A stretch of 64,000 bases of DNA from the NCBI GenBank assembly GCA_038087875.1, contig CM075988.1, positions 16,122,001 through 16,186,000 on the forward strand. Direction: 5' to 3'. Under the pieces are notes generated by a model. It saw nothing but the letters and a program-made list of their open reading frames with translations, searched no databases and was not told where the DNA came from. This document shows positions 347-49,768 of this stretch, in pieces. The DNA comes from Malacoraja senta (lineage: Eukaryota). Position 1 is the stretch's first letter. Every line of letters starts with the position of its first letter. Made by a program: the position numbers and the translations under genes.

Positions 347-1415
347 AGACAAAGGCGGAATCAGTTAATTTAATATCATACTTATATAATATCATCTTAA
401 ATATAGAAATACCCACAACAGATGGAATTAGAAGAGATTGGGAACAAGATCTAGGTATAAAAATTTCAAAAGAAAGTTGGGATAATCATTTATTACAGGT
501 GCATAAATGCTCGATCAACGTACGACATACGCTTATCCAATTTAAAACATTACATAGATTATATTATTCAAAAACCAAACTAAATAAAATCTTTCCTAAC
601 GTCTCATCAATCTGTGATAAATGTATATGTCAAGAAGCTACCATAGCACATTCTTTTGTTTTTTGTACAAAAATCCAAAAATTCTGGTTTGAAATATTTG
701 ATATTTTTTCAAAATTAATCAAAATAAAACTGGTACCAAAACCAGAATGGATTATTTTTGGAATATCGGAAGGTATTCCTGAATTAAACGTGTATCAGAA
801 GAATTTACTCAATTATGGGCTAATAATGGGAAAAAAGCTTATACTTAAATTCTGGAAAAATGCGCCCACACCAACAATAAAAATGTGGACATCAAATATG
901 TTGGAAACATTACATCTGGAAGAGATGAGATTCCTCCTAGTAGGTAAAGTAGATCAATTTCAAAAGACGTGGTCTACGTTTTTGGACCTATTACAAGCAT
1001 GAGGTGCAATAGTAATTTAGAAAAACAAATAAATAAATAAAAGGTATCTGGACCTGGTAATGGGAGGTAAAATAAAAACAGACTTGGTTGGTAGTTCCTT
1101 CTCTATGAAGTATAGTATAAGAGTTATAATAGAGCGATTGTTCCTTCTTTCTTTCTCTTTTTTTTCTAGGGTCTATTTTCTAACTTTACTTCCTTCTCTA
1201 ACCTCTTCTCTAAGGGGCTTTCTTTTCCCAACACTCTTTTGCACTTCACAACCTTTGCGCACTTTCTTCACTTTTCTTACTTCTTTCTTTTTCTTTCTTA
1301 AAGTTTAAAAAAATGAAGCGGTACAAAAAATGTATTAATATATACGTGTTGTACATTACTGTAATCTACCGTACTTCTAAAAAATAAAAAAAATAAAAAA
1401 AAAAAAAAAATAAAA
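347..1415 (+). mobile_element. 5'-truncated L1-clade LINE (ORF2 C-terminal zinc finger, 3'UTR, polyA) inserted into a CR1 fragment
   Basis: ORF 499-1002 with C-x2-C...H...C; polyA tail; 14-bp TSD TAAACCTATCCCAT at 333-346 and 1416-1429. Confidence 0.92.
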
Positions 1416-4861: not shown

Positions 4862-5716
4862 TGGGGGGAAAGTATTTGATACATATACACAAATGTTTGA
4901 TTAATGTAAGACATAATTTAATTCAATTAAAATTTTTACATAGATTATATTATTCAAAAACTTGACTGAATAAATTCTATCCAAATACTTCCCCCATTTG
5001 TGATAAATGTCTACCCCAAAATGCAACTATAACACACTCTTTTGTTTCCTGCATAAAACGTTATAAATTCTGGAGTGATATTTTTGAAATATTTACAAAA
5101 TTATTCAAGATAAAAATGGAACCTAATACTGAAATGATTATATTTGGAGTAACGGAAGACGGGAACAAATCAAACTCATCTCAACATTTATTTTTTAATT
5201 ATGGGTTAATAACGCAAAAAAACGTATACTTAAATTTTGGAAAAATACACCCACACCAACGCTTAAAATGTGGATTTCAAACATGTTGGACACCGCACAT
5301 CTTGAGGAAATGCGATTCCTCCTAATAGATAAATCAGACCAATTCTTACCGAGTTGGTCTCCATTTATCGACTTTTTGGAAGCATATGGTGCAACAAAAT
5401 TGTAGAAACTAACAGTTTCAGGACTGGGTGAAGGATGGTCAATATAAATAACGATCTCCTTAATCTCTTATTTTCTACTCTTTTTCTTTCTATCTTCTTT
5501 TCTTCACTTTTCCTCTTTCACCCCTTTTTCTTTTTCACACACCATATATCACACGTTTTTCTATATTTTATTATCTATTCTCTCTTTTTCTCTTTCATTA
5601 TTAAAAAAAAAAAATAAGAAGCTGTACATAAAATGTAACCTGTCAATATATATTAGGCCCCTTGGTGCCATATTACTGTACTTACTTCTAATAAAATAAA
5701 ATTTAAAAAAAACAAA
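4862..5716 (+). mobile_element. 5'-truncated L1-clade LINE
   Basis: Homologous to the ORF2 C-terminus of the other L1s; A-rich tail; 14-bp TSD ATTCATGTTGAAGG at 4848-4861 and 5717-5730. Confidence 0.9.
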
Positions 5717-8066: not shown

Positions 8067-11000
8067 GTAAGACTTTCTCAACCGCAGTTAACAGTGCAAA
8101 TTATTGAAGTTTTGTGTCGGGAGGAACTGCAGATGCTGGTTTACACCGAAGATGGACACAAAATGCTGGAGTAACTCAGCGCGGGGGGGGGGGGGGGGGG
8201 GCAGGCAGGAAAGGGAAAGGGTGAGGTTTCGGGGTCGAGACCCTTCTTCAGACTGAGAGTCGGGGAGAGGGGATCTAGAGATATGGAAGTGGAAGGTGTG
8301 GCTGGAGGTGGAATTCTGCTGGAGGTGGCAAAAATGTCGAAAGACTATGTGCTGTATGCGACGACAAGGAAGGTGAGGACCAGGGGGACTCTGTCCCTGT
8401 TGCGACTGTGGGACACTTCTTCCCACCCTGCTTCCTGCAAAGACTGTATCCCCTACTCCAAATTCCTCCACCTACGCTGCATCTGCACCCAAGATGAGGT
8501 GTTCCTAACCAGGACATCCGAGATGACCTCATTATTTAGGGAATGGGGATACCCCTCTTCCACCGTTGATGAGGCCCTCACATGGGTCTCCTCGGTACCC
8601 CGCAGCTCCGCTCTTGCACCCCTCCCCCCAACATTGAGGTTTGTTTGGTTGCAGGATATGTTCGATGCTGAACCTGGCAACAAGGTGCAATCTATAATCA
8701 AAATGAAATTTATGTTGGTGTTAAAGCAGGCACTAATTCTTTTGCATAATGACATAATGAGTTGTAAAATAATCTCGCTAAATAGAAAATTGCAAACCAG
8801 AGTTGAAGCTCAGACTATATATTTTAGTTTTAACCCAGTGTTCTGGTTAGTACTTAATCTTTAGTCAACATCTGGTAATTTCTTTAGCAAAATACACCAA
8901 ATAGCTGGAGGAACTCAGGGGGTCAGGCGGAATCTGGATTGGTGATATTTCGGGTCAGACTAATCGCTGAGCTTCTCCAGCACTTTGCATTTTGCTCAAG
9001 ATTCCTGTATCTTTAGCTCCTTTTGTCTCTGAACATTTCTTTGATGGCAGTGGGAACTTACAATCCACAGATTGGTTGTCACTCCTGCAACAAGAAGTCC
9101 TCATTAATTACAGTAAACCCACATTATTACAGACCTTTTTATAATAGATTTTGGTTACAGCGGACAGACCTACCTCCAGGCCTGGCTGCCAATGCTACTC
9201 CCGGCCCGGGTACTTCCCGCATCACCTCCCCGGTTACTTCCAGCCCTGACCTACTGCCACCACCGCCGGGGACCACAGGGCTTCCTCAGTCACTTCCAGA
9301 CCACCACCGACCCTTACCTGCACTCAAGCCTGCACCAATGACTCCGCCAATCCTCTCCTCTCCCCCTGGGGCTGTCAACTCGCCTGGATTCCAGGCTCAG
9401 TTCCAGACCGAGAATCTGAGGGTCAGTCTCGACCCAAAACATCACCTATCCATGTTCTCCAGAGATGCTGCCTGACTGCTGAGTTACTCCAGCACTTTGT
9501 ATCCTTTTGTGTATCAACCAGCATCTGCAGTACTACCACTTATACAATGATACTCTATTATTCAATAATCTCTTGCTCGGTTATAGCTCGATTTTTCCCT
9601 CTAGTGTTTGTTTTTCCATCCTGGGAAAATGATTCTGACTGTCTACTCTATATATGTCCCTCATAATTTTATGTACTTCAATCGGGTCGGACTATAACCT
9701 CAGGGCATTCCAGAAAAAAACAATTCAAATCTGACCAATGCTCCGAAGTGGAAAATTCTGTTCGCAGGTCTATTCCTTGATCTTCCCACTTTCCCAGTTA
9801 TCCCACTTTCTCATTCACTCACTACACATTAGGGGCAATTTTAGAAGCTTATTAACCTACATACCCAAACGTCTTTGGGCTGTGGGAGGTAACCGTAGCA
9901 CCTATGGGAAAGCCATATGGTCACAGGGAGAACGTGCAAACTCTAAACAGATAGCACTCGAGTTCAGGATCAAACCCGGGTCCTTAGCGTTGTAAGGCAG
10001 CAGCTCTACTAACTGTACTGTAATGTTCTCCTGGTCATGTCCAACCGCTGCAGTATTTCACTTTTATATCCATACCGTCTTGAATGGTACCCTTACCAAC
10101 AAATTATTTTAAAAAATCTTCATTGGATACCAAAACAAAAACAAATCTTTTCTTTTAACCAAGATAGCAGCTAAAACTATTTAGCCCTTAGTTGTCTATG
10201 TTGAGGTCTTTCTTATATAAAGCTCCTCCGAAGCACATTAGAACATGTTGTTGTATTGAAGGTACTATGAAAATGGAAGCTGTTGATTTATTTTTATTTT
10301 TTATTTTTTATTTTTTTATTAATATTTTTATTAGAAGCAGTGTACAGTAGTATAAACCGCGGCATGTGACAAAATACATTTATTGTACATCTTCCATTTT
10401 AAATTTAACAAAGAAGAAATAGAAAAAGAGAGACAGAGCAAGAAAGAGAGAAAGTGAAAGAAATAGTGAATGTGTACACCCCTAAACTACCGAATAGTGT
10501 AGTCAAAGAGTAAATAAGTAAAAACCTAAAAAAGAGTAAGAAGACAAAAACGAAAAATAATAATAAAAAAAAGAAAAAAGGGACCATAACGTGTTGATAT
10601 ACCTGCTTCATTTCTCACCACACCCATCACCCTGTCCGTGAATCGGTTTAATTCCAAAATTGTGTTGCACCATACTATACGTGTAATGAATCAATGAAAG
10701 GAGACCATATCTTTAGAAATTGCTCTGATTTTCCTGCTAAGACGAGTCTCATATCTTCAAGATGTAGCGTCTCAGACATGCTTGTAATCCACATTTTAGG
10801 AGTTGGGGTAGAAGCATTTTTCCAAAATTTAAGTATACGTTTTTTTGCCATTATCAGGCCATAATTGAGGAAACGTCTTTGAAATATTGATAGCTCAGAG
10901 CAGACTCCTGTTATTCTAAAAATAATCAATTCTGTATGGGGGTCCAGTTTTGATTTAATAATTTTGAGAAGATTTCAAAGATTCCTTTCCAAAATTTATG

Positions 11001-14000
11001 AAGTTTTATGCAAGAGGCAAAGGAGTGTGCTTCTTGAGATAGACATTTGTCGCAGATAGGAGATACATTTGGAAACATTTTGTTCAGTTTAGTATTTGAG
11101 TAATATAGTCTGTGTAGTATTTTAAATTGGATTAGAATATGTCTTACATTAATCGAACAATTATGTATATATAGGAGATATTTTTCCCATCTGTCTTTGG
11201 GGATTTTTAGACTTAATTCCTGTTCCCACTCTCTTCTAATTACATCTGACGATGGAATTTCTATATTTAGAAGGATATTGTACAAGTATGATATTAAATT
11301 ATTTGACTGCGTTTCTATTCATACCTTCATCTAATATATCTGGCAATATATCCGTGGGTATATGTTTTCAAATAGTCTCGAATTTGAAGATATCTAAAAT
11401 ATTGATTACCTTTCAGACTGTATTTCGACTGTAATTTCTGGAATGATAAGAGGTTTCCCATTTCGTACAAATCTCCAACCTTTTTAATTCCTAGTCTTTC
11501 CCAATGAATAAACGTTTTATCTATAATAGATGGTTTGAACGACGGGTTATTAGCTATTGGAGAAAGAAGAGATAGATTTTTTTTTTTAAAATTATAATAA
11601 AGAAGAAAAAGAAAAAGAAATTAGATAATAAAGTATAGAAATATGTGAGATATAGTGTGTGGAAAAGAAAAATAGAAAGTGAAAGAAGAAAGTTAAAGAA
11701 TAGAAAATAGGAAAAAGAGAATAAAAAAAGAAAAAAAAGGAAGAAAAAGAAAAAAGAACTAATGAGATCTTATTTATAATCTTGACCATCCCTCGCCCAG
11801 TCACGAGTTAGCTTTTACAATTGTGTTGCACCATATGATTACAAAAAGACGACAAATGGGGACCAATTCGTTATGAATTGGTCAAATTTATCTATTAGGA
11901 GGAATCGCATTTCCTCAAGATGTGCGGTGTCCAACATACTTGCAATCCACATTTTGAGCGTTGGTATTGGTGTATTTTTCCAAAATTTAAGTATTAATTT
12001 TTTTGCTATTATTAAACCATAATTAAAAAATAATTTTTGAGATGGATTCAATTTATTCCCATCTTCCATTACCCCAAATATAATCAATTCATTATTAGGT
12101 TCCATTTTTATCTTAAATAATTTTGTGAATATTTTGAAAATATCACTCCAAAATCTATAAAGTTTTATACAGGAAACAAAAGAGTGTGTTATAGTTGCAT
12201 CTTGGGTTAAACATTTATCGCAAGTGGGGGATATATTTGGGTAGAATTTATTTAATCTTGTTTTTGAGTAATATAATCTATGTAAAATTTTAAATTGAAT
12301 TAGATTATGTCTTGCATTAATCGAACATTTGAGAATGTATGTCAAATACTTTTCCCATGTAACCTTCGTAATTTTTATCATTAATTCCCATTCCCACTCT
12401 TCTCTAAGTACCTCTGTCGCTGGTAAATCTATATTTAAAATACTATTATATAAATATGATATAAATTTTTGTGTATCAGCTTTAATATTCATTGCTTCTT
12501 CCAATAAATCAGGAGTTATTTTTTGATATCCTTGTATGTATGTCTTCAAGAAATCGCAAATCTGAAGATAATTTTAATTGTTTCCATATTCTTATTGTAT
12601 CCTGTATAATTGGGTTCTTCTTATATATTGTATTGTTCATTTTTTTCGGGGAGAAGAGGATCGTTCCTATATTACAAGGAAAACAATCCTCTTTCTCCAT
12701 TTTTATCCATTCTGTCTGTTGGGTAGAACTATCCAACCAGTACATTATATTCTTAATATGTATTGCCCAATAATAATACAGAAAATTCGGGAGTGAAAGT
12801 CCCCCGACATCTTTTGGTTTACATAAGTGTTCTTTTTTAATTCTATGTGATTTATAATCCAAAACAAAATGAGTAATATTAGAGTTTAATTTTAAAAAAA
12901 AAAATGTTGGTACATATACTGGTATAGACTGAAATAGGTATAATAACTGTGGTAGAAAGATCATTTTTATAGCGTTTATTCTACCTATTAATGATAAAGG
13001 AAGTGTTTTCCAAAATTTAATCATTATATTAAGTTTGTTTATTAAAGGTATAAAATTGGCATTGAATAAAGCTTTATGTTTTCTAGTAATCTGAATACCC
13101 AGATATTTAAATTTTTCTGTTGCTATTTTAAAGGGGAACTTCAGTAAGTGTGTAGATTCTTGAGGTTTTAACGTCATGATTTCACTTTTGTTCCAATTTA
13201 TTCTATATCCAGAAAAGGACCCAAATTCCTCTATTAAGTTTAATAAATTTGGTATGCTCGTTTGTGAGTTTGTTATATATAACAGAATATCGTCTGCATT
13301 TAATGAAATTTTATTATTTGAGTCCCTAGTATTATAATCCTGAATATTCGGATGACTTCTTATACTTTCAGCCAAAGGTTCTATCATAAGGGCGAATAGT
13401 AGGGGTGATAAAGCACATCCCTGCCTATTACCCCTTGATAATTGAAATTTTTGAGATAACATATTATTAGTTAATATTCTTGCCATCGGTTTATCATATA
13501 ATAATTTCACCCATGTAATAAAATTCTCTCCCATATTAAATTTTTGTAATACTTTGTATAAATACTGCCATTCTACCTGATCAAATGCTTTCTCTGCGTC
13601 CAAAGAAATAATTGATATATCTTCTTCCTCCACTTAATGTGAGTACATTATATTAAACAAGCGTCTCAAATTATTAAATGAATATCTTTTGGGTATAAAC
13701 CCCGTTTGATCAGGGTTTATCAATTTACTAATATATTTGCTTAGTCTTCTGGCTAAAGTCTTTGCTAAAATTTTCTGATCTGTATTTAAAAGTGATATAG
13801 CTCTATATGAGCCCGGGTCCTCTAGATCTTTATCTTTTTTTGGAATAAATGTAATAGTTGATTCTGCTAATGTTTCAGGTAGTTTATTTTCTTTAAAAGC
13901 GTGAGTATATAAATTAAATAAATAGGGAGTGGTTATCACATGAAATTTTTTATAAAATTCATTACTAAAACCGTCTGGTGTCTATAAATTTTTTATAAAA

Positions 14001-17000
14001 TTCATTACTAAAACCGTCTGGTGTCTTACCATTTTTCAACGATTTTATTGTTTCACCTATTTCTTCGATTGTAATTTGTGCTCCGAGTTCCTCTTGTTCC
14101 AAAAGGTCAAGTTTTGGAAGATTACAATTATCTAAAAAATTATTAATTTTACTATCTTCTATTTTAGTTTTTGATGTATATAAATGTTGATAAAATTGAG
14201 CAAATCTTTTATTAATATCTTTAGGTAGTATTAGTAATTCACCATTCTCCGATTTAATTTTATTTATGGTATTTTCTTTTTCTTGTTTTTTCAGTTGGCA
14301 CGCTAACAGCTTATGTGGTTTGTCACCAAACTCAAAATGTTCCTGTTTTGTAATTTGGAATAATCTTATTACTCTTGCCGAGAGAATTCGATTAAGTTTA
14401 AATTTCAGTAATATTATCTTATTATGTTTATCTATAGTGGAGTCTTTAGCATTATCTAACTCTAACTGTCTAATTTATTGTTCTAGCAACATTTGTTCTG
14501 TTTTATTCTTTTTATTTTGAAAAATTTTGTATGAAATTATAATTCCTCTAATAAATGCCTTAAAAGTTTCCCATAATAAAGAAGGCGAGGTACCTGGTGT
14601 ATCATTTATCTCAAAAAAAAATTTCATTTGTTGTTTTAAGTATTGATAACCTTGTAAGTCATTTAAAATATTTGTATTAAACCTCCAAAAAAAGTTTTTA
14701 CCCGGCATTCCCTCAAATTTTACTGAAAAAGTCAACGGAGAGTGATCAGAAATACTACTAATGTGGTATGTTGGATTAATTGTATATGGCATTAATTTCA
14801 TATCCACTAAAAAATAATCAATTCTTGAATAAGTTTTATGTACCGAAGAGTAAAACGAGTATTCCCTTCCTACTGGATTAGCAGATCTTCATACATCTGT
14901 TATATTAGTATTTTTTATATATGTATTTAGAAGTTCACTAGTCTTAGATTTTAAATTACTCCTCCTTTGTTTTACTGATTTGTCTAAGTATGGATCTAAA
15001 ACACAGTTGAAGTCCCCCCCTATTATCACATTTTGGTAATTAAACTCTAATATATCTATAATTTTATCAAAAAATTGGGGGTTATCAAAATTCGGAGCGT
15101 AAATATTTATCATAGTTAGTGGGGTTGCATAAATTTCTCCCGAAACTATGATGTACCTTCCCTCTTTATCTGATATAGTGTTCTTTAATTTGAAAGGTAT
15201 ACCTTTTCGAATAAGAATAGCCGTACCTCTAGATTTAGAAGTAAATGACGAATAATATGTTTGACCTATCCACTTCGCCTTTAATCTCATTTGTGTTTGC
15301 TGTTTCATGTGGGTTTCTTGCAAAAAGATTATGTCGCTTTTCAAAGATTTTAGGTGAGCAAAAATGTTACCCCTCTTTATTGGTTCATTGGCACCCCTTA
15401 TATTCCACTACAGAATGTGATTCCTCCATTCTTTATTTGTCTATCGTCTTGCATTATATATCAAAATAGTATTCCTGAATCATATGGTGCAAGCAAATAC
15501 CTCAGAGTTCTGGGTGTTGGGTGGTCATCCCAAGTTTTTAAGTTTATATTACATCTCCTTCTCCAAAAGTACCGTAGATAAAGAAAGAAAAAATGTGATT
15601 TAAAGTTGATTACAAAAAAACTAAGCAAATACAAATTTTTATAGTGATTTTTAAAAAAAAGTGAAGTTAAGGTATCTAAGAAAAGATACCTTAAAGACAA
15701 GTAGCCACCTAAGGTGGCGAAAAATTTATGGACTTCCGTTGGTGTTGTTTTACATTGAACTCCAATCCCTTATTAACACCTCATAAAAAGCTACAGACCG
15801 TCTCATATCTTGTTTATTCTTACTTAAATTTATCAAACTAGCACTAGTAAAAACCAAAAAGACTCAGAGAAAAAATGTTTAAAAAATAAAAAACCAAATA
15901 TAAGACACAACATATTCTCAGTTCTATAAGTATTTATGCCTTTCCAATTTATCTAACCAACTACCATACAAGCAGGTACCGAGGGGTTAAACAAAACCTC
16001 ATTCCTGGATCTTTTCCAAGTTTATGCTGCGCCTAACTCCTTCCCACACAAGAAAAATACGTTAGTAATGTTATAGACATTTTGGTTAATTACTATTTAT
16101 AAGCATATATCATTTATAAGTATATATCAGTAATATTAGTTCATTTCCCTTTTTAAATATATAAAATCATAACTTATACAATCCCATTATTTCTTTCCCC
16201 ACCTCATGGTTTATTCATGATTTATTCATATTTACTACATACACTCACAAATAATTAGTATTATTAAATTTGTTAAATTAGTTGGTTAATTATAATTAGA
16301 ATATAATGGTTAGATATTTTCTTAAATCAACAGTTAGTATTAATATTATCTCGTCCATGTCCCTTATACATTCCTTCATTACTTCTGTATCTTCAACGTC
16401 CTTTTGTTTATCTTTGAGCTTTTCATTCAAGGTGAAACATGGACAATGTTCTCAAATACACATTCCAGACAGATAAGCTCGGTAACTGTCTGGAAAAATC
16501 CACCATCTTAGCCAGTTCAAAACTCTATCTTAAAAGTTAAGAAATGCAATCTTCCTCCTCCTCGACATCTTCTTCCGATGTTTTCGATGCTTTTCTTACG
16601 ATATCTTCTGCATACTTAAAAGCTTTTTCGGGATCCATAAATGAGCGCTCAGTTCCGTTGTAAGTAATTTTCATTTTTGCTGGATAGACCACCCCATATC
16701 TGACATGAGGTATTCCTCTCAGTATGTTTCTTGTCTGTGTAAACAAGTTCCTTCTCTGGACGACCTCCGGAGGATAATTACGGAAAAATCGAATATTATC
16801 CCCACCATATATCAAATTCTCCCCATGGACAATCTTATTCAGTATAAATTCCACTGAAGAGATGTCGAGAAATTTCACAATTATCTGTCTTGGAGCAGCA
16901 TTTATGTCTCTTGAGACACGTCCAACTCGGTGAACGATATCTATTCTTGATTCTTCCGGCAGTTTAAAAACATCTTTGAGTAAGTCAGCAACGAAAGTAC

Positions 17001-20000
17001 GTGTTTGAGATCCATATCCTTCTCGCCCTTCTCTTACTCCAACAATTCTCAAATTCTGCCTTTCCGATCTCGCATCCAAGTCCAAACATTTGTCCGTCAT
17101 TCTTGCAAGTTTTTCTTCTTCAGCTTTCTTTGATTTTTTCAAACTCTTTATTTCCGTAATCATCTCTTTCATGTCATTTTCCATCTCTTCCATTCTCTCA
17201 TCAAGGTCGCCCATCTTATCATTTACACCAGTAAATTTCTTATTATAATCATTTTCGATTCTAACAAATTCTGATTTAAGTTTTTTATCACTCATTATGT
17301 TGCTTCTTCAGCTCCTTTAACTCACCACAAGCACCATCAATTTTTTGAGAGAATATCTCCATATTAGTCTCCATACTCTGCATCTTTTCCAGTGTCGTAT
17401 TAATTGTAGCAGTTATATCTAAAAGCATTTGCTTTACCTCCTTCTCCTTCTTTTCTCCTTTTGCAGCCATTTCCAGCACAGATCCTTGGCTGTAAAAGGC
17501 CTGTCTCACGAGTCTGCGGTCATTGGCGGCGAAACGGGAAGAATCTGCCGCCATAGACCGCGCACTCGTGAGAACGTACAATTCCCGGGCCGTGCGGCGG
17601 TGTTCCCAACACCGCGCGGTGCTAAAATAAAATCGACAATGTCGAAAACCATATACTCACCGCACAACCTCCACCAGTGATGCACAAGTGCGGCACGGCC
17701 GCCCGCATGGGCCGCCGCCAGTGTGGCTCGAGCGCCGTGCGTCAAACCTCCACTGCCACAGCCTCCACCAGTGAGGCACGTGCCGCCGCCAGTGAGGCAC
17801 GTGTGCTGCACGGCCGCAGGCACAGCCACCGCTACAGCTCCACGATCAGGATGGCCGCCGCCACAGCCGCCGCTGGTGAGTCACGTGCGGTGGGCCGACG
17901 TCATCGCAGTCGGCCCGCCCTTTTTTTTACTTACCGCAAGCACGTGAGACCCGCCGTGTTTGAATTAACTCGGCCCCCGCACAGCATCCGTGCGGCGCTC
18001 CGGTGGATAGGCTCGACGCTCTCGCCGTTGCCGCGCGGTCCTCGCTACCGGCGACGCCGCGCTTCACCGCCGATGACCGCAAACAGGTAAGACAGAGCCT
18101 TAAGACTCTTCTTCTGAGCCTTCTTCTGTTGTTTGCAGTATCCAAAACTTTTTCAAGCTGGAGACTTATAGTAGTTTTCTTAGGTGCTCGTGAGCTTTTC
18201 TCTCTTCTCATTTAAAAGTCCCGATTTTTACCGTTAAACTCCCGATTTTAGCGTCGTTTTCTGATGATGTCATGCAACGCCAAGCATATTTTTAGAATCG
18301 GTCCCGACTTTAAAACGGTTTTTTAGCGATTTTACGGGAGAGGAGCTCAATGCAGCGCCCTTAGTGTTCCATGGCGCTACCGGAAATCCTAGATTTCTTA
18401 GTTTAAGAGTAAATTTAAGTGCTATGAATAATCAGGTTTTTCTTGTATATTGTGTTCTTCAACTTTATTGGGGAGAGAAGGATCGTACCAATATTAAAAG
18501 GCAAGCAATCCTCTCTCTCCATTACTAACTAATCTACCTGTTGACATGAATTATCCAGCCAGTGAATTACTTTTTTAATATTCGCTGCCCAATAATAGTA
18601 CAAGAAATTGGGGAGCGCCAATCCACCGATTTCTTTGGGTTTACATAGATGTCGTCTATGAATTCTATGTGATTTATAATCCCAAGCTACTTCCTCTGGC
18701 AGCTTGTTCCATACACCCACCACCACCCATAGTTCAGCCTGATGATTATTCAGCACAGTTGGAACTGCTGAGGGTTTATGCAGGTGTGTCGTACGTTGCA
18801 AGGTGGGAGGGAGCAAAGTCAGCAGAGGCACACAGCCAACGTGTGGGAGGCAGTGGTGGGAACTAGAAAAATGAAAGGTGGGTGGAGAGGAGCCATTGGT
18901 TTGTCAGGTGGCTGAAGAATGTGCAATGAGTCGATGAGAAAATGGGATAATACTCATGGTATTTTATCCCACTTGTACATGGAATATAACTTATCCAAGC
19001 CTGAAAATACAAGTTTATATAATTCAGGCCTATAAAAATAATAATATACCTCATTATTATTGAAGTTTCTAATAATGTAAGCGTATTATTTTATATCTTG
19101 AATATAATACACTTATATTATAATATAATATTATAATATAATATTATAATATAATATAACAGTGTATATTAACATACTATATTAATATATATAATATGAT
19201 ATATAATAATATTATTTTCCATCCTAATATATTGAAGTCGCTGATGAGTCATGTAATGTGCCTGTTGAGAGATGAGGCATTGTTTTCCATTTGAGATTTC
19301 TTGGAACAGTTTGCGAAACTAAACATAGATCATTGATAGTTGGAATGGATGGGAGAATTGCTTGACTCGTGACCGGATACGCAGATTTCCTTTGCAGACA
19401 AAACAAGGATGTTCCACAAAGTGATTACTCTATCTTCATTCAGTAAAGGTAGCCTGAGCAGACATAATGCCAAACATGCAAGTAAAACACAGTGATGCAT
19501 GGAATAGGTTCCAAGTGCAGGGAAGGGAATGGAGACATTTGCAAGATCTTGCCAGTATTTTCATATTGCCAGCCTCTAATTCTGCATAGGTTATTAAGCA
19601 TTGGCTCCTACATAATATGCATCAGTTTATAATATGCCCCATTTAGTTTAGAGATACAGCATAGAAATGTGCCCTTCGGCCCACCGAATCCATGCTGACC
19701 ATTGGTCATCCATTCTCACTAGTTCTAGGTTATTCCGCTTTATCATTAGAGGCAATTTTACAAAGGCCAATTAACCTACAAACTTGTACTTTGGAATGTG
19801 GGAGGAAACCGGAGCACCTGTAGGAAAGCCACATGGTCACGGGCAGAACGTGTAAACTCTACACAGACAGCACTCGAGGTCAGGATCGAACCCGGGTCCC
19901 TGGCGCTGTATGGCAGCAGTTCTACTTGCCCGCTGTTAAAAGTGTATTCTCACATACGTCCTTGGATGGAATCAAATGAAAGGCAAGAGGAAGGGATGCC

Positions 20001-32000: not shown

Positions 32001-33981
32001 CAATCAAATAAGATCAAATAGAACAAGTTGTTCTACAACTTTAGGCTGTGCACGCCATACGCAAGAAGAAGAACAATGTGTTGAAGGACTGGCACTTACA
32101 ACCTCATACCTGGGAGAGTTTGTCCTGATAGTGGAATACTCATTTCATTCACTGAGGAGCCATTATTTTCTATGAAAGATGGAAGAGGACATTTGCGCAC
32201 ACAGAAGCAACAAGCAATATGGATGTGGGCTGAGATCATGGTCTTTCCATATTTCCTATATTGTGCAAGAACAAATAAACAACAAAGAAAACACGGTTTT
32301 GGGGGGAATTTTACAAATAATAAGAGACAACAAGGGAAAAGACATATTTTCATTTCCAGTCTTGTTTCTATGGTCTGTTTTAAATCCTAAAATTATTATT
32401 TTTATTCTAAAAATTGTACATAACAGCTTTCAGAAAATCTTAAATTATTTCTTTGACCCCTGAAATTATTTGTTAAACCAAGGTAGTTGCCCTGCTGCTT
32501 GTGGGCAGGCTAAAGGGGCTGTCCCACTGCGGCGATCTAATCTGCGAGTTTAGAAGACTTTGCCCTCGACTCAAACTCGCAGCATGGTCGACACGTGGTC
32601 CTAGGAGGTCCTATGAGGTCACTGGACCTCTCCTTCATGCTCGAGGGAAGTTCCCGCATACTCACGGCCTCAGTTTGGTCGAGGAAAAATGTTCAGCATG
32701 TTGAAAAATTTTCCACGAGTAAAAATTGGTCGGCATGGTTCTTTTGAACTCGTAGTGCAGTGGAGTGGGGTTGCTATGTAGTTACAGGCAGTCGAGGACA
32801 GCCGTAGGCATCTCCTTATCTAACCGGGCATTTAAATTGGTTCATTGGAGATTTCAGGACCAAGGAAAACCAACCGGTAATGTAAAAAGCCCGCTAAACT
32901 TTATTATAAGTTGTCTGGATTCTTAAACGTGTCTCCACTCTTTCTCCCCCCCCCTTCTCCCCCCCCTTCTCCCCCCCCCCTTCTTCCCCCCCCCTTCTCT
33001 CCCCCCCCCCTTCTCTCCCCCCCCCTTCTCTCCCCCCCCCCTTCTCTCCCCCCCCCCTTCTCTCCCCCCCCCCTTCTCTCCCCCCCCCCTTCTCTCCCCC
33101 CCCCCTTCTCTCCCCCCCCCCTTCTCTCCCCCCCCCCTTCTCTCCCCCCCCCCTTCTCTCCCCCCCCCCTTCTCCCCCCCCCCCTTCTCCCCCCCCTTCT
33201 CCCCCCCCCCCCTTCTCCCCCCCCTTCTCCCCCCCCCTTCTCCCCCCCCCCTTCTCTCCCCCCCTTCTCTCCCCCCCCCTTCTCCCCCCCCCTTCTCCCC
33301 CCCCTTCTTCCCCCCCCCTGCCCGCGCTCTCTAAAGGACTTACCGTACACTGTGCAGCCGTCTTTTACCTTTCTGTTCATCGCGGGTGTAAATTTCAGAC
33401 AGCGCTCCCCCGCTTTCCCTGGCCCCCGCCTTTGCGATGTATTTGTGTGTGTGTGTGCGCGGTCGGTCGATCCAGCTCGCGGTTTCATCGCTGACGGTCG
33501 ATCCAGCTCGAGGTTTTCCAGGCAAGTGCCCTCGAGCTTGAAGATCGAAGACAGTCACTGAAAGGTCGCGTCAGTGGGACAGGCCCTGTAACATTTGATA
33601 ACTGGTGAATTTCCAAAAGGACGTTGAACAAGCCACAAAAGTGCTGGAGTAACTCAGCAGGACAGGCCGTGTCTCTGGAGAATATGGATAGGTTACGTCT
33701 TAGGTCAGGACTCTTCTTCAGACATGCCACAGTTGTGTTATTGTGTTCTTAGCATATCTATTGGGATTGAATTTCTACCCAATCTGTGTCTATACAGTAG
33801 AATATAAAATATATAATACATAAATACAAATCAGTAAAATGACTTGTTCTTCTTTGTATCTCTAAAGGATCATGGCTTGTGTGCAACACTCAGTCCAATA
33901 AATCAGAAAGCAGAGTTATTCTCAATGGCCCCTGAGCTGCCTCCTTGCAAAAATTACAAGCAGCCCAGCAATGTGCCATGA
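7853..33981 (+). CDS. nfkbiz-like: Spliced gene for an IkB-zeta/IkBNS-family protein (OCA peptide + truncated ankyrin domain), 11 coding exons, 579 aa
   Basis: Exons 7853-8066, 20964-21088, 21826-21853, 21947-22011, 25027-25631, 28003-28108, 28958-29104, 29212-29272, 29917-30083, 30775-30882 and 33868-33981 join in frame (1740 nt) across GT-AG introns. Peptides match human IkB-zeta as recalled: [31 protein letters not shown] ~ [48 protein letters not shown] ~ NQHLIVQDLVNIGAQVN. Ortholog versus paralog is not resolved. Confidence 0.88.
8110..8632. mobile_element. Penelope-like element fragments in inverted arrangement
   Basis: Terminal repeat on - strand, then + strand [23 protein letters not shown], a PLE RT-thumb region. 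Confidence 0.7.
10286..11572 (-). mobile_element. Older L1-clade LINE, 3' part (5' part at 18397-18685), split by the L1 at 11580-18389
   Basis: ORFs 10675-10929 and 10926-11285; T-rich tail ~10286-10320; the LKLRNLSL-coding sequence rejoins across the insertion. Confidence 0.9.
13943..14026. repeat. 41-bp tandem duplication inside L1 element A ORF2
   Basis: AAATTTTTTATAAAATTCATTACTAAAACCGTCTGGTGTCT occurs twice, 43-bp period. Confidence 0.85.
17496..18100. mobile_element. CpG-rich PIF/Harbinger-type MITE inserted in L1 ORF1
   Basis: Imperfect ~40-bp TIRs (AAGGCCTGTCTCAC..TGCGGTCATTGGCGG / CCGCCGATGACCGCA..GTAAGACAGAGCCT); TAA TSD at 17493-17495 and 18101-18103. Confidence 0.82.
18397..18685 (-). 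mobile_element. 5' remnant of the older L1 split by element A
   Basis: [37 protein letters not shown] in ORF 18529-18831. Confidence 0.88.
19100..19217. repeat. AT-rich low-complexity tract
   Basis: Degenerate (TATAA/ATATT)n. Confidence 0.8.
20964..21088 (+). CDS. Coding exon 2 with OCA peptide ([23 protein letters not shown])
   Basis: Acceptor ttttttccttag, donor CAG|GTACAA. Motif resembles OCA-B YQGVRVKEPVKELLRRKRG and IkB-zeta FQGVRVKNSVKELLLHIR. Confidence 0.9.
21826..21853 (+). CDS. Coding exon 3 (28-nt micro-exon, ADVACKLNN)
   Basis: Acceptor tttctttccctacag, donor ATG|GTAAGC; phase 0 in, phase 1 out, which bridges exons 2 and 4. Confidence 0.75.
21947..22011 (+). CDS. Coding exon 4 ([22 protein letters not shown]; basic, possible part of an NLS)
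   Basis: Acceptor tttatttcag, donor CAG|GTAAGG; phase 1 in, phase 0 out. Confidence 0.78.
22200..23230 (+). mobile_element. Decayed Penelope-like element (RT and GIY-YIG remnants)
   Basis: YLEQSLFQS...LFFRYIDH (a YIDD variant), then a remnant of the GIY-YIG region ending ARFVEP. Confidence 0.7.
23488..24037 (+). mobile_element. PIF/Harbinger-type MITE, copy 1
   Basis: TIRs AGGGGCTGTCCCACTG / CAGTGGGACAGGCCCT; TTA TSD at 23485-23487 and 24038-24040. Confidence 0.9.
25027..25631 (+). CDS. Coding exon 5 (large linker exon ending in the pre-ankyrin helix ...[31 protein letters not shown])
   Basis: Lies within ORF 25015-25635; acceptor cttgcctttccag, donor AC|GTGAGT; the last ~30 aa are IkB-zeta-like. 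Confidence 0.9.
28003..28108 (+). CDS. Coding exon 6, ankyrin repeat 1 ([35 protein letters not shown])
   Basis: Acceptor ttattctgatag, donor CAA|GTGAGT; resembles IkB-zeta FLHIAVAQGRRALSYVLARKMNALHMLDIKEHNGQ. Confidence 0.93.
28958..29104 (+). CDS. Coding exon 7, ankyrin repeats 2-3 ([49 protein letters not shown])
   Basis: TALH and TPIH ankyrin motifs; acceptor tgcctgcacag, donor CAG|GTATGT. Confidence 0.95.
29212..29272 (+). CDS. Coding exon 8 ([20 protein letters not shown])
   Basis: Acceptor cattgcag, donor T|GTAAGT; phase 0 in, phase 1 out; corresponds to IkB-zeta ...VDLEATNYD. Confidence 0.88.
29917..30083 (+). CDS. Coding exon 9, ankyrin repeat 4 with the nuclear-IkB insertion ([18 protein letters not shown]...[18 protein letters not shown])
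   Basis: Resembles IkB-zeta GLTPLHCAVIAHNAVVHEL...SLVDTIKCLIQMGAAVEAK; acceptor ggtctacag, donor CAG|GTATGA. Confidence 0.93.
30775..30882 (+). CDS. Coding exon 10, degenerate ankyrin repeat 5 ([36 protein letters not shown])
   Basis: Acceptor catttcctcaag, donor AAG|GTACAC; resembles IkB-zeta [25 protein letters not shown]. Confidence 0.85.
32514..33587 (+). mobile_element. PIF/Harbinger-type MITE, copy 2, with internal expanded pyrimidine tract
   Basis: Same TIRs and internal sequence as copy 1; TAA on the left, GTAA on the right. Confidence 0.9.
32939..33318. repeat. Pure C/T minisatellite, approximately (C7-10TTCT[CT])n
   Basis: ~380 bp with only C and T on the + strand; G-run array on the - strand. 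Confidence 0.95.
33868..33981 (+). CDS. Coding exon 11, non-ankyrin C-terminal tail and stop ([10 protein letters not shown]...KQPSNVP*)
   Basis: Acceptor ttctttgtatctctaaag, open in phase 0, TGA at 33979-33981, strong donor G|GTGAGT at 33983. Confidence 0.7.
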   Translation, partial: DHGLCATLSPINQKAELFSMAPELPPCKNYKQPSNVP

Positions 33982-40427: not shown

Positions 40428-41540
40428 CACATAAGAGATTATTATACAAACTTAAAGCACATGGCATTGGGGGTTCAGTATTGATGTGGATAGAGAACTG
40501 GCTGGCAAACAGGAAGCAAAGAGTAGGAGTAAACGGGTCCATTTCACAATGGCAGGCAGTGACTAGTGGGGTACCGCAAGGCTCAGTGCTGGGACCCCAG
40601 CTATTTACAATATATATTAATGATCTGGATGAGGGAATTGAAGGCAATATCTCCAAGTTTGCGGATGACACTAAGCTGGGGAGCAGTGTTAGCTGTGAGG
40701 AGGATGCTAGGAGACTGCAAGGTGACTTGGATAGGCTGGGTGAGTGGGCAAATGTTTGGCAGATGCAGTATAATGTGGATAAATGTGAGGTTATCCATTT
40801 TGGTGGCCAACTAGGAAAAGGGGAGATGCAACGAGACCTGGGTGTCATGGTACACCAGTCATTGAAAGTAGGCATGCAGGTGCAGCAGGCAGTGAAGAAA
40901 GCAAATGGTATGTTAGCTTTCATAGCAAAAGGATTTGAGTATAGGAGCAGGGAGGTTCTACTGCAGTTGTACAGGGTCTTGGTGAGACCACACCTGGAGT
41001 ATTGCGTACAGTTTTGGTCTCCAAATCTGAGGAAGGACATTATTGCCATAGAGGGAGTGCAGAGAAGGTTCACCAGACTGATTCCTGGGATGTCAGGACT
41101 GTCTTATGAAGAAAGACTGGATAGACTTGGTTTATACTCTCTAGAATTTAGGAGATTGAGAGGGGATCTTATAGAAACTTACAAAATTCTTAAGGGGTTG
41201 GACAGGCTAGATGCAGGAAGATTGCTCCCGATGTTGGGGAAGTCCAGGACAAGGGGTCACAGCTTAAGGATAAGGGGGAAATCCTTTAAAACCGAGATGA
41301 GAAGAACTTTTTTCACACAGAGAGTGGTGAATCTCTGGAACTCTCTGCCACAGAGGGTAGTCGAGGCCAGTTCATTGGCTATATTTAAGAGGGAGTTAGA
41401 TGTGGCCCTTGTGGCTAAAGGGATCAGAGGGTTTGGAGAGAAGGCAGGTACAGGATACTGAGTTGGATGATCAGCCATGATCATATTGAATGGCGGTGCA
41501 GGCTCGAAGGGCCGAATGGCCTACTCCGGCACCTAATTTC
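40428..41540 (+). mobile_element. Young 5'-truncated CR1 LINE (RT C-terminal part still open)
   Basis: ORF 40481-41461 with GVPQGSVLGP and KFADDTKL; (TATGTTTC)n tail. Confidence 0.95.
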
Positions 41541-43304: not shown

Positions 43305-46300
43305 GGCTTCTGGTGGCGCCATGTTATACTAACAGACGTGCACCTAGCTCCGCTCTCGAAAAAATTCGCGATTTTTTGCGTTAAAACGGGTCTATAAGTC
43401 GGAATTGATTTAAAAACTTTACCGGAGCTTCTGGTCGCCATGCTGATGACGTCATCAGTAAGCGCGATGTTTTAAACGGTGGCTTAAAGACTTTTATATG
43501 AGAAAACTGTCTCCAGCTCAGAGCCCTCGGAGAACAGTTAAAAAACAGCTGCTGAAAAACCTGAAGAATCCTGAAGGAGAAGTTACCTCTGAAGTTCCTG
43601 AAGTGGCTGCAGAAATGGATACAAGATCTAAGACAGAGCTGGCTAAGGATAAAGAATTTGAGGATTTGAAGAAATCAGTGAAAGATATGAAAGATGAAAT
43701 TTTGGATGAAAATAAAACTCTGATGGAAAAAATGATGGAAAAAATCGAAAAGATGATGTAGGATTTGAAGGCTGGTAATCAGAAGGATATTGATGCTGGT
43801 AATCAGAAGGTGATTGATTCACTTGACACTATAAATAAACGAATTGATGATGTGAAAGATGGACTATCGGGGAGAATGGATAAGATGGAAAAAGTTACTA
43901 CGGACAGGTTCACGGCTGTGCTTGAAACAGTAGCTGCAAGTATGGCTACAATCATGGAATTGGAGAAAAATATGGCTCGAGTGGCAGAAGACATGGTGAA
44001 AATGAGGCGAGAACATGATCAAATGAAGCAAGAACATGAGCAAACTTCAGTACAGATGACGACTCAACTGGGGAAAGTTTCAGATAAATGCCTGGACCTG
44101 GAAGCTCGTTCTAGACGCCAGAATTTGAGAATTCTTGGAGTCTCAGAGGGAACTGAGGGAAGGGACATTCGTGAGTTTGCCATGGGCTTACTTAAACAAC
44201 TGCTTAATCTCTCCAAAGAACCGAAAATTGAAGTGGCACACCGTGTACCGAGACTTAAACCGAGATCTCAAGCTAGACAAGACCACCCACGACAGATTAT
44301 TGTGAAATTTCGAGACATTTCAGAACTGGAAGAGGTGATGAGTAAAATCAAATATGGAGTGCAACTGAGGCTTGATAACGACATTATCAAAATATTCAGG
44401 GACTATCCGTATGAAATTGTGCGAAAGAGAAATCAATTCGGAAAGGCAAAAGAACTTTTAAGGGGGATGCAAGAAGTTAGATACGGTGTCTTTTATCCAG
44501 CTAAAATGCGCATCTCTTATAATGGACGTGAAAGATCATTTGTGAACCCGGAGGATGCGTACAAATATGCCCAGAGCATCGTTGAAAAGTAGCAACATAG
44601 ATGGTATGAACAAACTTCTTTATTGGAATTCCACAGTTAATGGAGGATCGCCAGCTCGGAACCATTTCATGTAGTGTTTTGTTTAGGATGGCGAGACTGG
44701 TTATCTGTGGAATTTTAACTCAAGGACATTCTGTGTTCCAAACGAAGTAAACAGCCGAACCGAAGAGAATGGACTATACCAGAAGCATTAATTGTTTAAT
44801 GGATTATAATATTAAATCCAATTGTAAGAATCGATCCTATTAACAACTTAACAATTTAACAAGTTATCAATATTAAACTAGAATAGTAACGGACGCTAAT
44901 AACAAAAATAACGAACTAACATAACTAACATAAATTTTTACTAAATCTAAACCTTGTCTATAACTGGGAGGAGGGGATGAGAAACGAGCACCTGGCTCGG
45001 GTCCAGGAGCACGTTTCATTAACCCCTTCAACCAACAGTTGATTATTATTGAGGGTAAAATCATTCGTTTAATAATTAGTAGATAAAATTGCGATATATA
45101 TATGATATGCTATAATGAAATATATAGGGTAAATTTGTATTATATATCTGATTGTGAGGCCCCGTCCTATTATGTTATGATTAACCAAGGGTGCGGAGTT
45201 ATTTGTTTAACATCAACAATGGAAGTCGAAACAAGGTTTTCTCCCACCTACAGGTGGGCCACTTGTTACAGTGTCGACCATTTTAGACGCTGTATTTTCA
45301 CTTTTTCAATTTTTTTTAAATTATTGTTATTATCACATAAAGTCACATGTTTGTGTTTTGTGTTTAGTGATAAGCGTAAAAGGGATATGCCAACAAAACT
45401 TAGTAATGCAAAGGTTCCCCCAATACCCAAAGACCTGAGACATGGATGCACCACAAGATTTAAAGGTATTATAATTATTCAAAATGCAAGATGTTAAACA
45501 AAAGAACCTAGGAGGAGTCTCATTCTGCAGTTGGAATATAAGAGGTATTAATGAACCTATTAAAAGGGGTAAGATATTAGCTCAGCTGAAACTGTACAAC
45601 TCTGACATCATTTTCTTACAAGAAACTCATCTAAAATCCCAGGATCAAGCTAGGTTGAGGGCGAAATGGATAGGTCAAATATATCATTCTTCATATACTT
45701 CGAAATCTAGAGGTACGTCAATCATTATTAGAAAAGATATACCATTCAAAGCAAAGAATACCATAACAGACATTGAAGGGAGATATTTGATAGTTACCGG
45801 AGAAATTCATGATACTCCAATTACCTTGATAAATATATACGCGCCTAACTTTGACAATCCTCATTTTTTCAATAAATTTCTGAACATAATCGCAGAGTTT
45901 AATTATCAAAATGTTATAATAGGAGGAGACTTTAACTGTGTTTTAGATCCGTATTTAGACAAATCAAGCCAAAAACAGAGAGGGAATACGAAATCTAAAA
46001 CTAGTGAATTTTTAAATACTTATATAAATAATACTAATATAACAGATGTTTGGAGAATTGCTAATCCGACTGACAGGGAATACTCGTTTTATTCAATTAT
46101 GTTACACAAAACATACTCACGTATAGATTATTTCCTGGTGGATACAAAATTAATCCCTCACACTGTGAACCCAGCATACCATACAAATTCGATTTCAGAC
46201 CATTCACCACTAACTTTCTTTTTAAAACTGGAAGGAATGTCTAAGAATAAATCATTTTGGAGATTCAATTCTCAAATCCTAAAAGATCCGCAAGCGAGTA

Positions 46301-49300
46301 TATATTTAAAAGAACAAATGGACGTCTTTTTTGAAATAAATGACACTCCAGATATATCGCCTACTTTACTATGGGAATCTTTTAAAGCGTTTATTAGAGG
46401 CGTTATAATCTCATACCAAGCTTTTCAAAATAAAAAGAATAAGAATGAACAAAGACAGTTAGAAGAACTTATTAGACAAATGGATATAGATAATGCTAAA
46501 GATCCATCAATAGATAAACATAATAAAATAATAATTTTGAAATTTAAATTAAATAAACTATTATCAGCCAAACTTATAAGACTTTTCCAAATTACAAAAC
46601 AGGAACACTTTGAATTTGGGGATAAACCGCATAAACTTTTGGCTCGTCAGCTAAAAAAACGAGAAAAAGAACATACGATCCAAAAGATTAAATCAGATAG
46701 AGGGGAATTACTAACCATACCGAAGGATATTAATAAAAGATTTGCGCAATTTTGTGAGAATTTGTACACATCTAAAACGACTACGGACTCCAATAAAATT
46801 ACAGAGTTCTTGGATAATTGTAATCTTCCAAAGTTAGAGTTGAAGGAACAAGAGGAATTGGGTGCACAAATTTCAATCAAGGAATTAGAAGACACAATAA
46901 ATTCATTAAAGAATGGAAAAACTCCAGGTCCTGATGGATTTACTAATGAATTTTATAAAAGCTTTTATGACAAAATTATACCACGATTACAAAAAGTGTA
47001 TCAATATGCTTTTAAAAAACAAATATTACCTGATACATTAGCTGAATCAACGATCACACTAATACTTAAAAAAGACAAAGATATAGAAGAACCGGGTTCA
47101 TATAGAGCTATAGCATTGTTAAATACAGATCAAAAAATATTAGTGAAAACATTAGCTAGAAGATTAAGTAAATATATTAGTAAATTAATAAACCCAGATC
47201 AGACGGGGTTTATCCCTAAGAGATATTCATCTAATAATATGAGACATCTACTCAATATAATGCACTCACACAAAATTGAAGAACCAGAATAATCAATTAT
47301 TTCGCTGGGCGCTGAAAAAGCATTTGACCAAGTAGAATGGAATTATATGGATAAAGTATTACAAAAATTCCAACTGGGAGAGAATATTATTTTATGTATT
47401 AAATTATTATATAATAAACCTACAGCTAGAATATTAACTAATAACATATTATCCTCGAAATTTCAACTATCAAGGGGAAACAGACAAGGATGCTCATTAT
47501 CACCACAGTTGTTTGCTCTCACAATTGAACCTTTAGCAGAAAAAATTAGAACACATCCAGATATCCATGGGTATAATACTAAATACTCAAATAACAAAAT
47601 ATCTTTATACGCGGATGAAATATTATTGTACATTACAAAACCTCAAATTACTATACCAAACATATTAAATCTAATTGAGGACTTTGGATCCTTTTCTGGA
47701 TACAGAATAAATTGGAATAAAAGTGAAATTATGTCAATAAAACCGAAAGACTCAACACATCTTTTAAAATTCCCTTTTAAAATAGCTACAAAAAAATTTA
47801 AATATTTGGGTATCGAAATCACTAGAACATATCAAGGCATATTCAAAGCAAATTATGATCCTCTACTTAATAAATTAAATACATTAATTAAATTTTGGAA
47901 AAGGCTTCCGATGTTTTTAATAGGCTGAATAAATGCAATAAAAATGATCTTCTTACCACAAATTTTATACCTATTTCAATCGATTCCTATATACCTACCA
48001 AAGAAGTTTTTTTTTTAATTGGACTCAGACATTACTAATTTCATATGGGATTATAAATCCCATAGAATACAAAGAACACACTTGAACAAAGCTAAAGTAT
48101 TAGGGGGCTTAGCACTCCCTAACTTCATGTATCATTATTGGTCAGTAAATATTAAAAATATGATCCAACTGATGGACAACTTTACCCAGCAAGTGGACTG
48201 GATTGTAGCGGAGAGAGGGGACCTCTCCTCTGGTAATATTGGAGGGATCCTCCTCTCACCAATGAAACTGAATAACATAAATTATAACAAAAACCCAATT
48301 ATACATAGTACAATCAGAACTTGGAAACAAATAAAACAAAATTTAAAATTAAGAAATCTATCGCTTTTATCTCCAGTAGTTAATAACCCTTCGTTTAAGC
48401 CCTCTATTACAGACAAATCTTTTATGCAATGGGATAGACTAGGAATTAAAACGTTCGGTGACTTGTATGAAACTGGAAAATTACTATCATTCCAACAATT
48501 ACAAATAAAATATAAACTGGGAAATAATCAATATTTTAAATATTTTCAAATATGTGACTATTTGAAAAAATATACAAAAGATCATTATAATATCCCAGCA
48601 GATGTATTGGATGAAGCAATGCAGATAAAAGCTGAATCAGCAAACTTAATATCATATTTGTATAATATGATATTATGAGTTTAATATGATAATATGAGTT
48701 TCGTTTGAGCCTCTTTGAGGTTCAAATGACAAGGAATAAAATCTAATCTAATCTAATTATCTTAAATGTAGAAATACCATCTACGGAAGGTATTAGAAGA
48801 GACTGGGAACAAGAATTAGCTATTAAAATCTCAAAGGAAAGGTGGAATGAACATTTATTAAACGTGCATAAATGTTCGATTAATGTGAGACACACTTTAA
48901 TACAATTTAAAATTTTACATAGATTATATTATTCAAAAACTAAAGTTAATAAAATTTTCCCTAATGTATCATCCATTTGTGATAAATGTCAATCTCAAGA
49001 AGCTACTATAGTGCACTCATTTGTTTTTTGTACAAAAATTCAAAAATCTTGGATTGAAATTTTTGAAATCTTTACAAAATTATTTAAAATAAAACTGATA
49101 CCCAAAGCAGAATGGATTAACTTCGGAACAACGGAAGATAGTCCTGAACTAAATGTGTTTCAAAAGAAATTAATAGATTACGGGTTAATAACATGAAAAA
49201 AGTGAATCCTAAAATTCTGGAAAAATGCTCCAATACCAACTATAAACATGTGGATTTCAAATATGTTTGAAACATTACACCTAGAAGAGATAAGACTCCT

Positions 49301-49768
49301 CCTGGCAGGTAAACCAGATCACTTCCACCTGACGTGGTCTGCATTTACAGAATTATTACAAGTATAGGGTGCAAAAGTACTTTAAAAAAAAAATGGGGTC
49401 GGGTAAAGGGGGATGAAAGCTGGAGAGTTGGTATATCCCATTTGCATGATGCTTATAACAAAGTATTTGTTTTTCTCTTTTTTCCTCTTTCTCTTTTTTT
49501 TTCTTCTTTAGGGTCTATCTCTTAATCCTTTCTTTTTAATTTCTTTTCTACAGGGTCTCTGTTCTTTCTTGTTGTCACGTTTTTACACCTTCACTATTTT
49601 CCTTCACTTTCTCTTTTTTCTTAATCTCAACCTTTCCTTTATATCAGTGTAAAAAATGACGGAGTACATTAATTGTAATAAGATATACTTGATGAGTACT
49701 AATGTAATTGGTTGTAATGTAATGTACTTCTAATAAATAAAAATAAAAAATAAAAATTAAAAAAAAGA
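43305..49768 (+). mobile_element. Full-length dead L1-clade LINE (element B)
   Basis: ORF1 43498-44592 (one internal stop), ~0.9-kb spacer, ORF2 from ATG 45484 to ~49367 (APE, RT with YADE, zinc finger; several stops), AATAAA/polyA. 14-bp TSD AACTCAATAAAACC at 43291-43304 and 49769-49782. Confidence 0.97.
48667..48755 (+). mobile_element. Tiny retroposon 3'-end insertion within L1 element B ORF2
   Basis: Interrupts the YLYN-IILN coding sequence seen in sister L1s; hairpin 48704-48726, AATAAA and (ATCTA)3 tail. Confidence 0.65.

Follow-up and report, generated by a model that had tools for sequence, protein, structure and literature searches.

How the second open reading frame (ORF2) of the long interspersed nuclear element (LINE) L1 is translated from a bicistronic RNA is a long-standing question, sharpest for the fish, frog and basal mammal elements that have spacers of hundreds of bases. 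According to PMC5381506, how ORF2 comes to be translated across a long spacer is unsettled, long spacers are probably ancestral, spacers folded alone share no pattern, and internal ribosome entry sites (IRESs) have been proposed; the terms 'complementary' and 'inverted repeat' are absent from its main text. The two models cited there and in PMC4072516, that of Li 2006 with an IRES upstream of ORF2 and that of Alisch 2006 with termination-reinitiation, concern, as cited, local sequence just upstream of ORF2. PMC4072516 further describes a megabat L1 whose spacer is inhibitory in an element rebuilt without its untranslated regions (UTRs), finds the native spacer to perform 8.8-fold better than a shuffled one, and calls the persistence of this spacer hard to explain. 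Here we analyse L1 element A, which lies in a 64,000-nt stretch of the Malacoraja senta genome (GCA_038087875.1, contig CM075988.1, positions 16,122,001 to 16,186,000; hereafter the window). In this element and its relatives, 12 families in all, three nested pairs of complementary arms (H1 to H3, H3 being the outermost) link the ORF2 stop and the 3′UTR with the ~110 nt that directly precede the ORF2 AUG. This clasp addresses the same problem as the cited models and also involves sequence just upstream of ORF2, but its pairing is long-range.

The closest described counterparts are the viral 3′ cap-independent translation enhancers (3′CITEs) of Tombusviridae and their relatives, which act through long-distance 5′-3′ pairing (PMC8708638). 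Clasp and 3′CITE share kilobase-range pairing of the 3′UTR with the region before a start codon, and in L1 this pairing covaries computationally. They differ in that the partner of the clasp is the internal second cistron of a polyadenylated retrotransposon RNA, and in that the clasp is an extended nested duplex overlapping a stop codon rather than a kissing loop. Whereas 3′CITE RNAs are without cap and poly(A), L1 elements end in AATAAA and an A-rich tail. The clasp would at most work like a 3′CITE bridge, and we do not file it as one because the RNA is polyadenylated and no factor-binding fold was found. The termination upstream ribosome-binding site (TURBS) of caliciviruses needs overlapping stop and start codons together with local pairing. 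It resembles the clasp in placing a paired element shortly upstream of a downstream start codon, and differs in distance: the upstream stop in L1 lies 0.6-1.4 kb away (all 14 elements with an ORF1 match have spacers of 571-1436 nt), and the partner arm is 3.7 kb downstream. The conserved TURBS core complementary to 18S ribosomal RNA, sought by eye in the alignment, is present upstream of H2 in just 2 of the 12 families. Conserved RNA structure at the 3′ end is also carried by stringent LINEs and human L1 (PMC5135761), in the form of local hairpins of 8-10 bp; the term 'long-range' does not appear in that text. Titles and abstract beginnings in the literature covered, which takes in few subscription journals, describe no long-distance pairing for non-LTR (long terminal repeat) retrotransposons. 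The feature is real, conserved and, apparently, undescribed for L1, with a function that we infer.

The ORF2 ATG of element A stands at 15454 on the minus strand. The initial annotation had reported exact reverse complementarity between 15478-15492 and 11826-11840, and a match at 14 of 18 positions between 15510-15527 and 11783-11800; both hold on re-examination. Beyond these pairs we find an outer one, H3, and an inner candidate within coding sequence, H0. A second L1 in the same window, element B, has equivalents of H1-H3 spelled with different letters. The arms are as follows.

15477..15492, minus strand: H1 5′ arm of element A, with a conserved CC core 31 nt before the ORF2 ATG
11826..11841, minus strand: H1 3′ arm of element A, in the final ORF2 codons in family A; on or next to the stop codon in the 10 copies checked
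15510..15527, minus strand: H2 5′ arm of element A, two short helices
11783..11800, minus strand: H2 3′ arm of element A, within the 3′UTR
15553..15560, minus strand: H3 5′ arm of element A, the outer helix
11761..11768, minus strand: H3 3′ arm of element A, a 7/8 match in the window copy
15419..15427, minus strand: H0 5′ arm of element A, ORF2 codons 10-12, suggestive only
11898..11906, minus strand: H0 3′ arm of element A, C-terminal ORF2 codons, suggestive only
45382..45520, plus strand: 5′ arms of element B (family B), with H3 at 45382-45394, H2 at 45416-45428, H1 at 45447-45452, the ATG at 45484 and H0 at 45510-45520
49293..49439, plus strand: 3′ arms of element B, with H0 at 49293-49303, H1 at 49368-49373, H2 at 49401-49413 and H3 at 49427-49439

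The 15-bp match alone is weak, and its position is the improbable part: a 15-bp inverted repeat arises somewhere in the AT-rich 6.9 kb of element A in 15 of 200 shuffles, but only 1 of 5000 has one that links the stop region with the 150 nt preceding the AUG. Element A also carries chance inverted repeats of 16 and 19 bp. Both 16-nt arms of H1 are exact in 13 of 18 family-A copies, as are both arms of H3 in 10 of 18. A sixteenth H1 pair, which had been predicted from a base changed in the window copy, is borne out: 20 family-A stretches were fetched, 14 of them with a family-A 3′ end, and every one of the 14 has G where the window has T. The copy near 5379 from which that prediction was drawn belongs to another subfamily, D, with its own matching 5′ arm. 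The true family-A stop is ~10 nt beyond the H1 3′ arm (11815-11817), and the arm itself is therefore coding.

DNA and protein searches of this genome fetched 172 stretches, which with the two window elements made 174; both ORF2 ends were present in 87, which fell into 19 clusters. The main set holds 12 representatives of a single clade (A, D, B, B2, C, E, E2, E3, F1, F2, I1 and I2; ORF2 64-90% alike). Copies were left out where the 5′ arm region was truncated or replaced, the true 3′ end was missing or the family was a duplicate, and the distant families G, G2, J and H were scored separately. In 10 of the 12 families at most 2 of 40 shuffles reached the nested-helix score of the real sequence (E2, 4/40; F2, 19/40). 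RNAalifold, run on sequence-only alignments, recovered three long-range helices unprompted, H1 by the stop and H2 and H3 in the 3′UTR. G and G2 were also positive. Two side observations concern these families. Family C (window 352-1100) is very young, the best 40 of 40 matches being 100% identical over 401 nt, and 6 of 20 fetched copies hold the whole ORF2. Copy L039 begins as a family-A ORF2 and has a family-B2 3′ end 4.2 kb later, either a chimera or a nested insertion.

The arms covary. Across the 12 families, cognate arms gave a mean of -43.3 against -30.6 for non-cognate arms (z -5.4; 0 of 50,000 permutations). Permuting labels takes no account of the tree; protection comes from control window pairs taken within these elements, which share that tree, and 7 of 7 stayed at |z| <= 1.5. 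In the consensus fold, the true pairing of rows was better than 200 of 200 label permutations, with two-sided changes in 21 of 35 consensus pairs where permutations averaged 8.3. Individual compensatory changes can be read directly: in H1, A-U becomes C-G in E2 and E3, with two such changes in I2, and in H3, U-A becomes C-G between B and B2. The arms are also more conserved than the flanking spacers (0.56-0.74 versus 0.33-0.46). The arms, their nested order and the compensatory changes are established. H0, for which 5 of 12 families have 9-12 pairs and which shows a single two-sided change, is only suggestive, because its permutation test was not significant (z -1.7, 1058 of 20,000, with 1 of 5 controls at -2.2).

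The geometry ties the clasp to ORF2. Between the H1 core and the AUG lie 31 nt in 9 of 12 families and 33 nt in the other 3, though this stretch is only 46% identical; the remaining gaps vary more (20-35, 10-17, 19-38 and 6-19 nt). In B, B2, C, E and E2 the stop codon just precedes the H1 3′ arm, in F1 it is within the arm, and in A, D and I1 it follows the arm; the arm is therefore kept whether it is coding or not. A poly(A) signal lies 279-376 nt beyond the ORF2 end in 7 of 10 copies. Among 14 elements with an ORF1 match, the inter-ORF spacers run to 571-1436 nt with 11-32 AUGs, and ORF1 is not bracketed by comparable pairing (mean z -0.04; 1 of 14 elements). The tie to ORF2 and not ORF1 is established, as are the 31-33-nt spacing and the stop at or beside the H1 3′ arm. 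The sole element whose ORF1 scored as bracketed, L135 (z -3.2), may have done so by chance. Around the ORF1 stop, 40 window pairs gave no cognate pairing, and a ribosome shunt from that stop was rejected on this result.

The pairing signal recurs in some L1-like elements from other organisms. A metagenome scan yielded 70 loci, 26 with both ends and 22 with enough flank, from which one near-duplicate was dropped to leave 21. Values of z <= -3 were reached by 7 of these 21, compared with 0 of 81 in four shifted controls. Out of 51-69 windows in each element, the one that paired best with the stop region was no more than 75 nt from the AUG window in 9 of 21, for which the binomial probability, computed for n=22 on elements that are not fully independent, is ~4e-7. 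A cognate-minus-foreign two-dimensional scan of 88 cells peaked at ATG-80/stop-40, where 16 of 20 values were below zero. Positives fall on both sides of the deepest split in a quick reverse transcriptase tree: L105, L109 and L115 near teleost proteins, and L135, L140, L149 and L151 far from these, among L1-like elements that have no assignment. The arms of the positives look unrelated to one another in sequence and often extend into the first codons.

Several results weigh against a functional clasp. When helices called only on family A were tested column by column, 245 cells were paired against 239.6 +- 4.9 (3171 of 20,000, not significant), and two-sided changes were paired in 58 of 140 cases, no better than slid controls; this test took in helices without consensus-fold support and ignored register shifts, and it is still a miss. 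Cofolding favoured cognate arms on average (-21.6 versus -12.2), but the cognate arm came out best in just 5 of 14 rows and 8 of 14 columns. A minimum-energy fold of the 4.3 kb in one piece contains all helices in family C but no clasp helices in family A. The own-genome families J and H gave no clear signal, nor did 13 of the 21 distant elements, which may be decayed single copies or reflect a patchy feature. Predicted unpairing of the AUG hardly shifts on pairing (0.36 to 0.43, 22 elements), and exposure or occlusion of the AUG by the clasp was rejected for want of a consistent predicted shift; this measure does not tell the rival functions apart either. Rfam, searched over 11400-18500, returned no family save one chance match under its gathering score, and no factor-binding 3′ element, of the kind with which 3′CITEs bind eIF4F or ribosomal subunits, was identified.

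Taken with these points, the L1 arms around ORF2 are very probably a selected RNA structure. The initial annotation had proposed a long-range stem looping out ORF2, to be abandoned if complementarity or covariation were lost among subfamilies; both are kept, with compensatory changes across subfamilies and recurrence in distant elements. Formation of the helices in full-length RNA and in vivo is predicted; of 6 runs listed none was of RNA, which counts neither way, and contigs from three other runs cover family C in pieces too short to connect the two arms. The roles that the annotation attached to the stem, in ORF2 translation or cis-preference, are putative.

As to function, we give roughly even chances to a service at the ORF2 translation start, in which the clasp would be a bridge bringing the poly(A) end or terminating ribosomes to that start. 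The 31-33-nt AUG spacing and the unbracketed ORF1 fit this role, which is suggested because the arms are anchored at a set distance from an AUG where scanning from ORF1 is implausible. Ribosomes leaving ORF1 would be unlikely to scan the AUG-laden spacer. A nested long-range clasp over ~3.7 kb would keep the 3′ end of the RNA beside the ORF2 AUG, and would set the poly(A) tail and its bound factors, ~200-300 nt beyond H3, at a set distance from it; alternatively, a ribosome that had just finished ORF2 would be set at such a distance. A ribosome arriving at the ORF2 stop would have to melt H0 and H1 while H2 and H3 could stay paired, and therefore the clasp could also meter ORF2 output. More tentatively, it is possible that the clasp is an ancestral, undescribed device common to long-spacer L1 and L1-like elements across animals: a 3′-end bridge holding the ORF2 stop and the poly(A) tail at a set distance from the AUG, which would start ORF2 with no need of scanning and which the finishing ribosome would reset. 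If true, such a bridge would explain why long spacers persist and why they seemed inhibitory in tests without the 3′UTR, and would tie synthesis of ORF2 protein (ORF2p) to the 3′ end of its own RNA. Inhibition by the megabat spacer, which like those here is long and has persisted in evolution, could by analogy be due to the missing 3′ partner. L1 constructs without their native 3′UTR may misreport the effect of a spacer, and the exact base pairs to break and restore are now defined, which makes the question directly testable.

The same covariation would be expected if the clasp were real but repressed ORF2, blocking or throttling initiation so that little ORF2p is made per RNA. A helix is predicted over the AUG or first codons in B, B2, L104, L107 and L110, and low ORF2p output has been argued to be advantageous (PMC3894237). 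In many elements, however, the AUG sits in a gap of the duplex (the inter-strand profile is near zero from 0 to +20), the AUG-filled 1-kb spacer should repress already, and a fixed AUG spacing suits positioning more than blocking. We regard repression as unlikely.

Decidedly improbable is a shield against nonsense-mediated decay, in which the clasp would bend poly(A) and poly(A)-binding protein toward the ORF1 stop. Folding poly(A) back near a stop suppresses such decay in human cells (PMC2689704), and by simple arithmetic looping out ORF2 would bring the ORF1 stop to within ~1.3 kb of poly(A), a path that otherwise measures ~5 kb. Yet the 5′ arms are anchored to the ORF2 AUG, at 31-33 nt, while their distance from the ORF1 stop varies with the 571-1436-nt spacer, and no pairing lies near that stop. 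The clasp might instead shape the ribonucleoprotein for cis-preference or target-primed reverse transcription and have no initiation role: the 3′ arms are within ~300 nt of poly(A), where reverse transcription starts, and other LINE proteins recognise 3′UTR structures (PMC5135761). This leaves the fixed AUG distance unexplained, and the ORF2 stop is close to the poly(A) tail even without a clasp; we judge it a poor prospect too.

A spliced or internally started RNA as the source of ORF2, with the arms closing or regulating this shorter message, is very improbable. In A, D, B2, C and E, a pyrimidine tract and AG stand ~115-119 nt ahead of the AUG, immediately 5′ of H3, but 1-3 AUGs would be left between this acceptor-like AG and the ORF2 AUG. 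Family C gave one hit, without L1 sequence upstream and so not a spliced genomic copy, and family A gave none, a weak negative; splicing was rejected as a candidate on this absence from both families. That the arms have no function, and arose by chance or by repeated template-switch copying of one end onto the other, is scarcely credible, the weakness of the lone 15-mer and the failed family-A test notwithstanding, given that the helices are short, split by unequal non-complementary loops, renewed by scattered two-sided substitutions and recurrent in deeply separated lineages with unrelated sequences.

The acceptor-like tract and AG lie at window ~15573 (minus strand), with equivalents in L034, L267, L231, L065 and L098; the AG is lost in the window copy. 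One family-C copy, L273, begins exactly at the acceptor-like AG and is preceded by non-L1 DNA. The translation of this upstream DNA resembles what we take to be an LTR-retrotransposon gag.

The window copy of element A is dead, its ORF2 carrying a frameshift, stops and one deletion. Its parts are as follows.

11577..18390, ends approximate, minus strand: L1 element A, a dead family-A copy with 5′UTR, ORF1, 1.08-kb spacer, ORF2 and partial 3′UTR
16537..17295, minus strand: open part of ORF1, 252 aa, named from its position and its likeness to the ORF1 of element B
15455..16536, minus strand: inter-ORF spacer, 1078 nt, 26 AUGs, 30% GC
11815..15454, minus strand: broken ORF2 (endonuclease, reverse transcriptase, C terminal); 1269 aa in the intact relative L227

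An APE-type endonuclease is found at the N-terminus of the element B ORF2 (PF03372, E 3.4e-18), and element A aligns with its intact relative across this region. Window 12512-13534 encodes a reverse transcriptase domain (PF00078, E 2.2e-18) that clusters with named teleost proteins in a quick tree, the named relatives of ORF2 being teleost proteins. The C-terminal cysteine-histidine motif matches zf-RVT at E 9.3e-06, its 26.7 bits falling below the 27.5 cut-off. At the expected place upstream of ORF2 are ORFs of 238-252 aa, and the two tested gave no Pfam family. AATAAA with an A-rich tail was present in 7 of 10 copies checked, the window copy of A not being among these 7. That copy has lost the last ~90 nt of its 3′UTR and passes through an A-tract (11577-11586) directly into the ORF2 of another L1 fragment (10527-11576, minus strand); at a frameshift in its own ORF2, ~13975-14021 (minus strand), is a tandem duplication of ~47 nt.

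Elsewhere in the window, a 325-aa ORF at 40484-41461 (plus strand) resembles by eye the reverse transcriptase end of a CR1-type LINE, and 32904-33356 holds a purine-pyrimidine-skewed tandem array of 24 copies with a period of ~16 nt.

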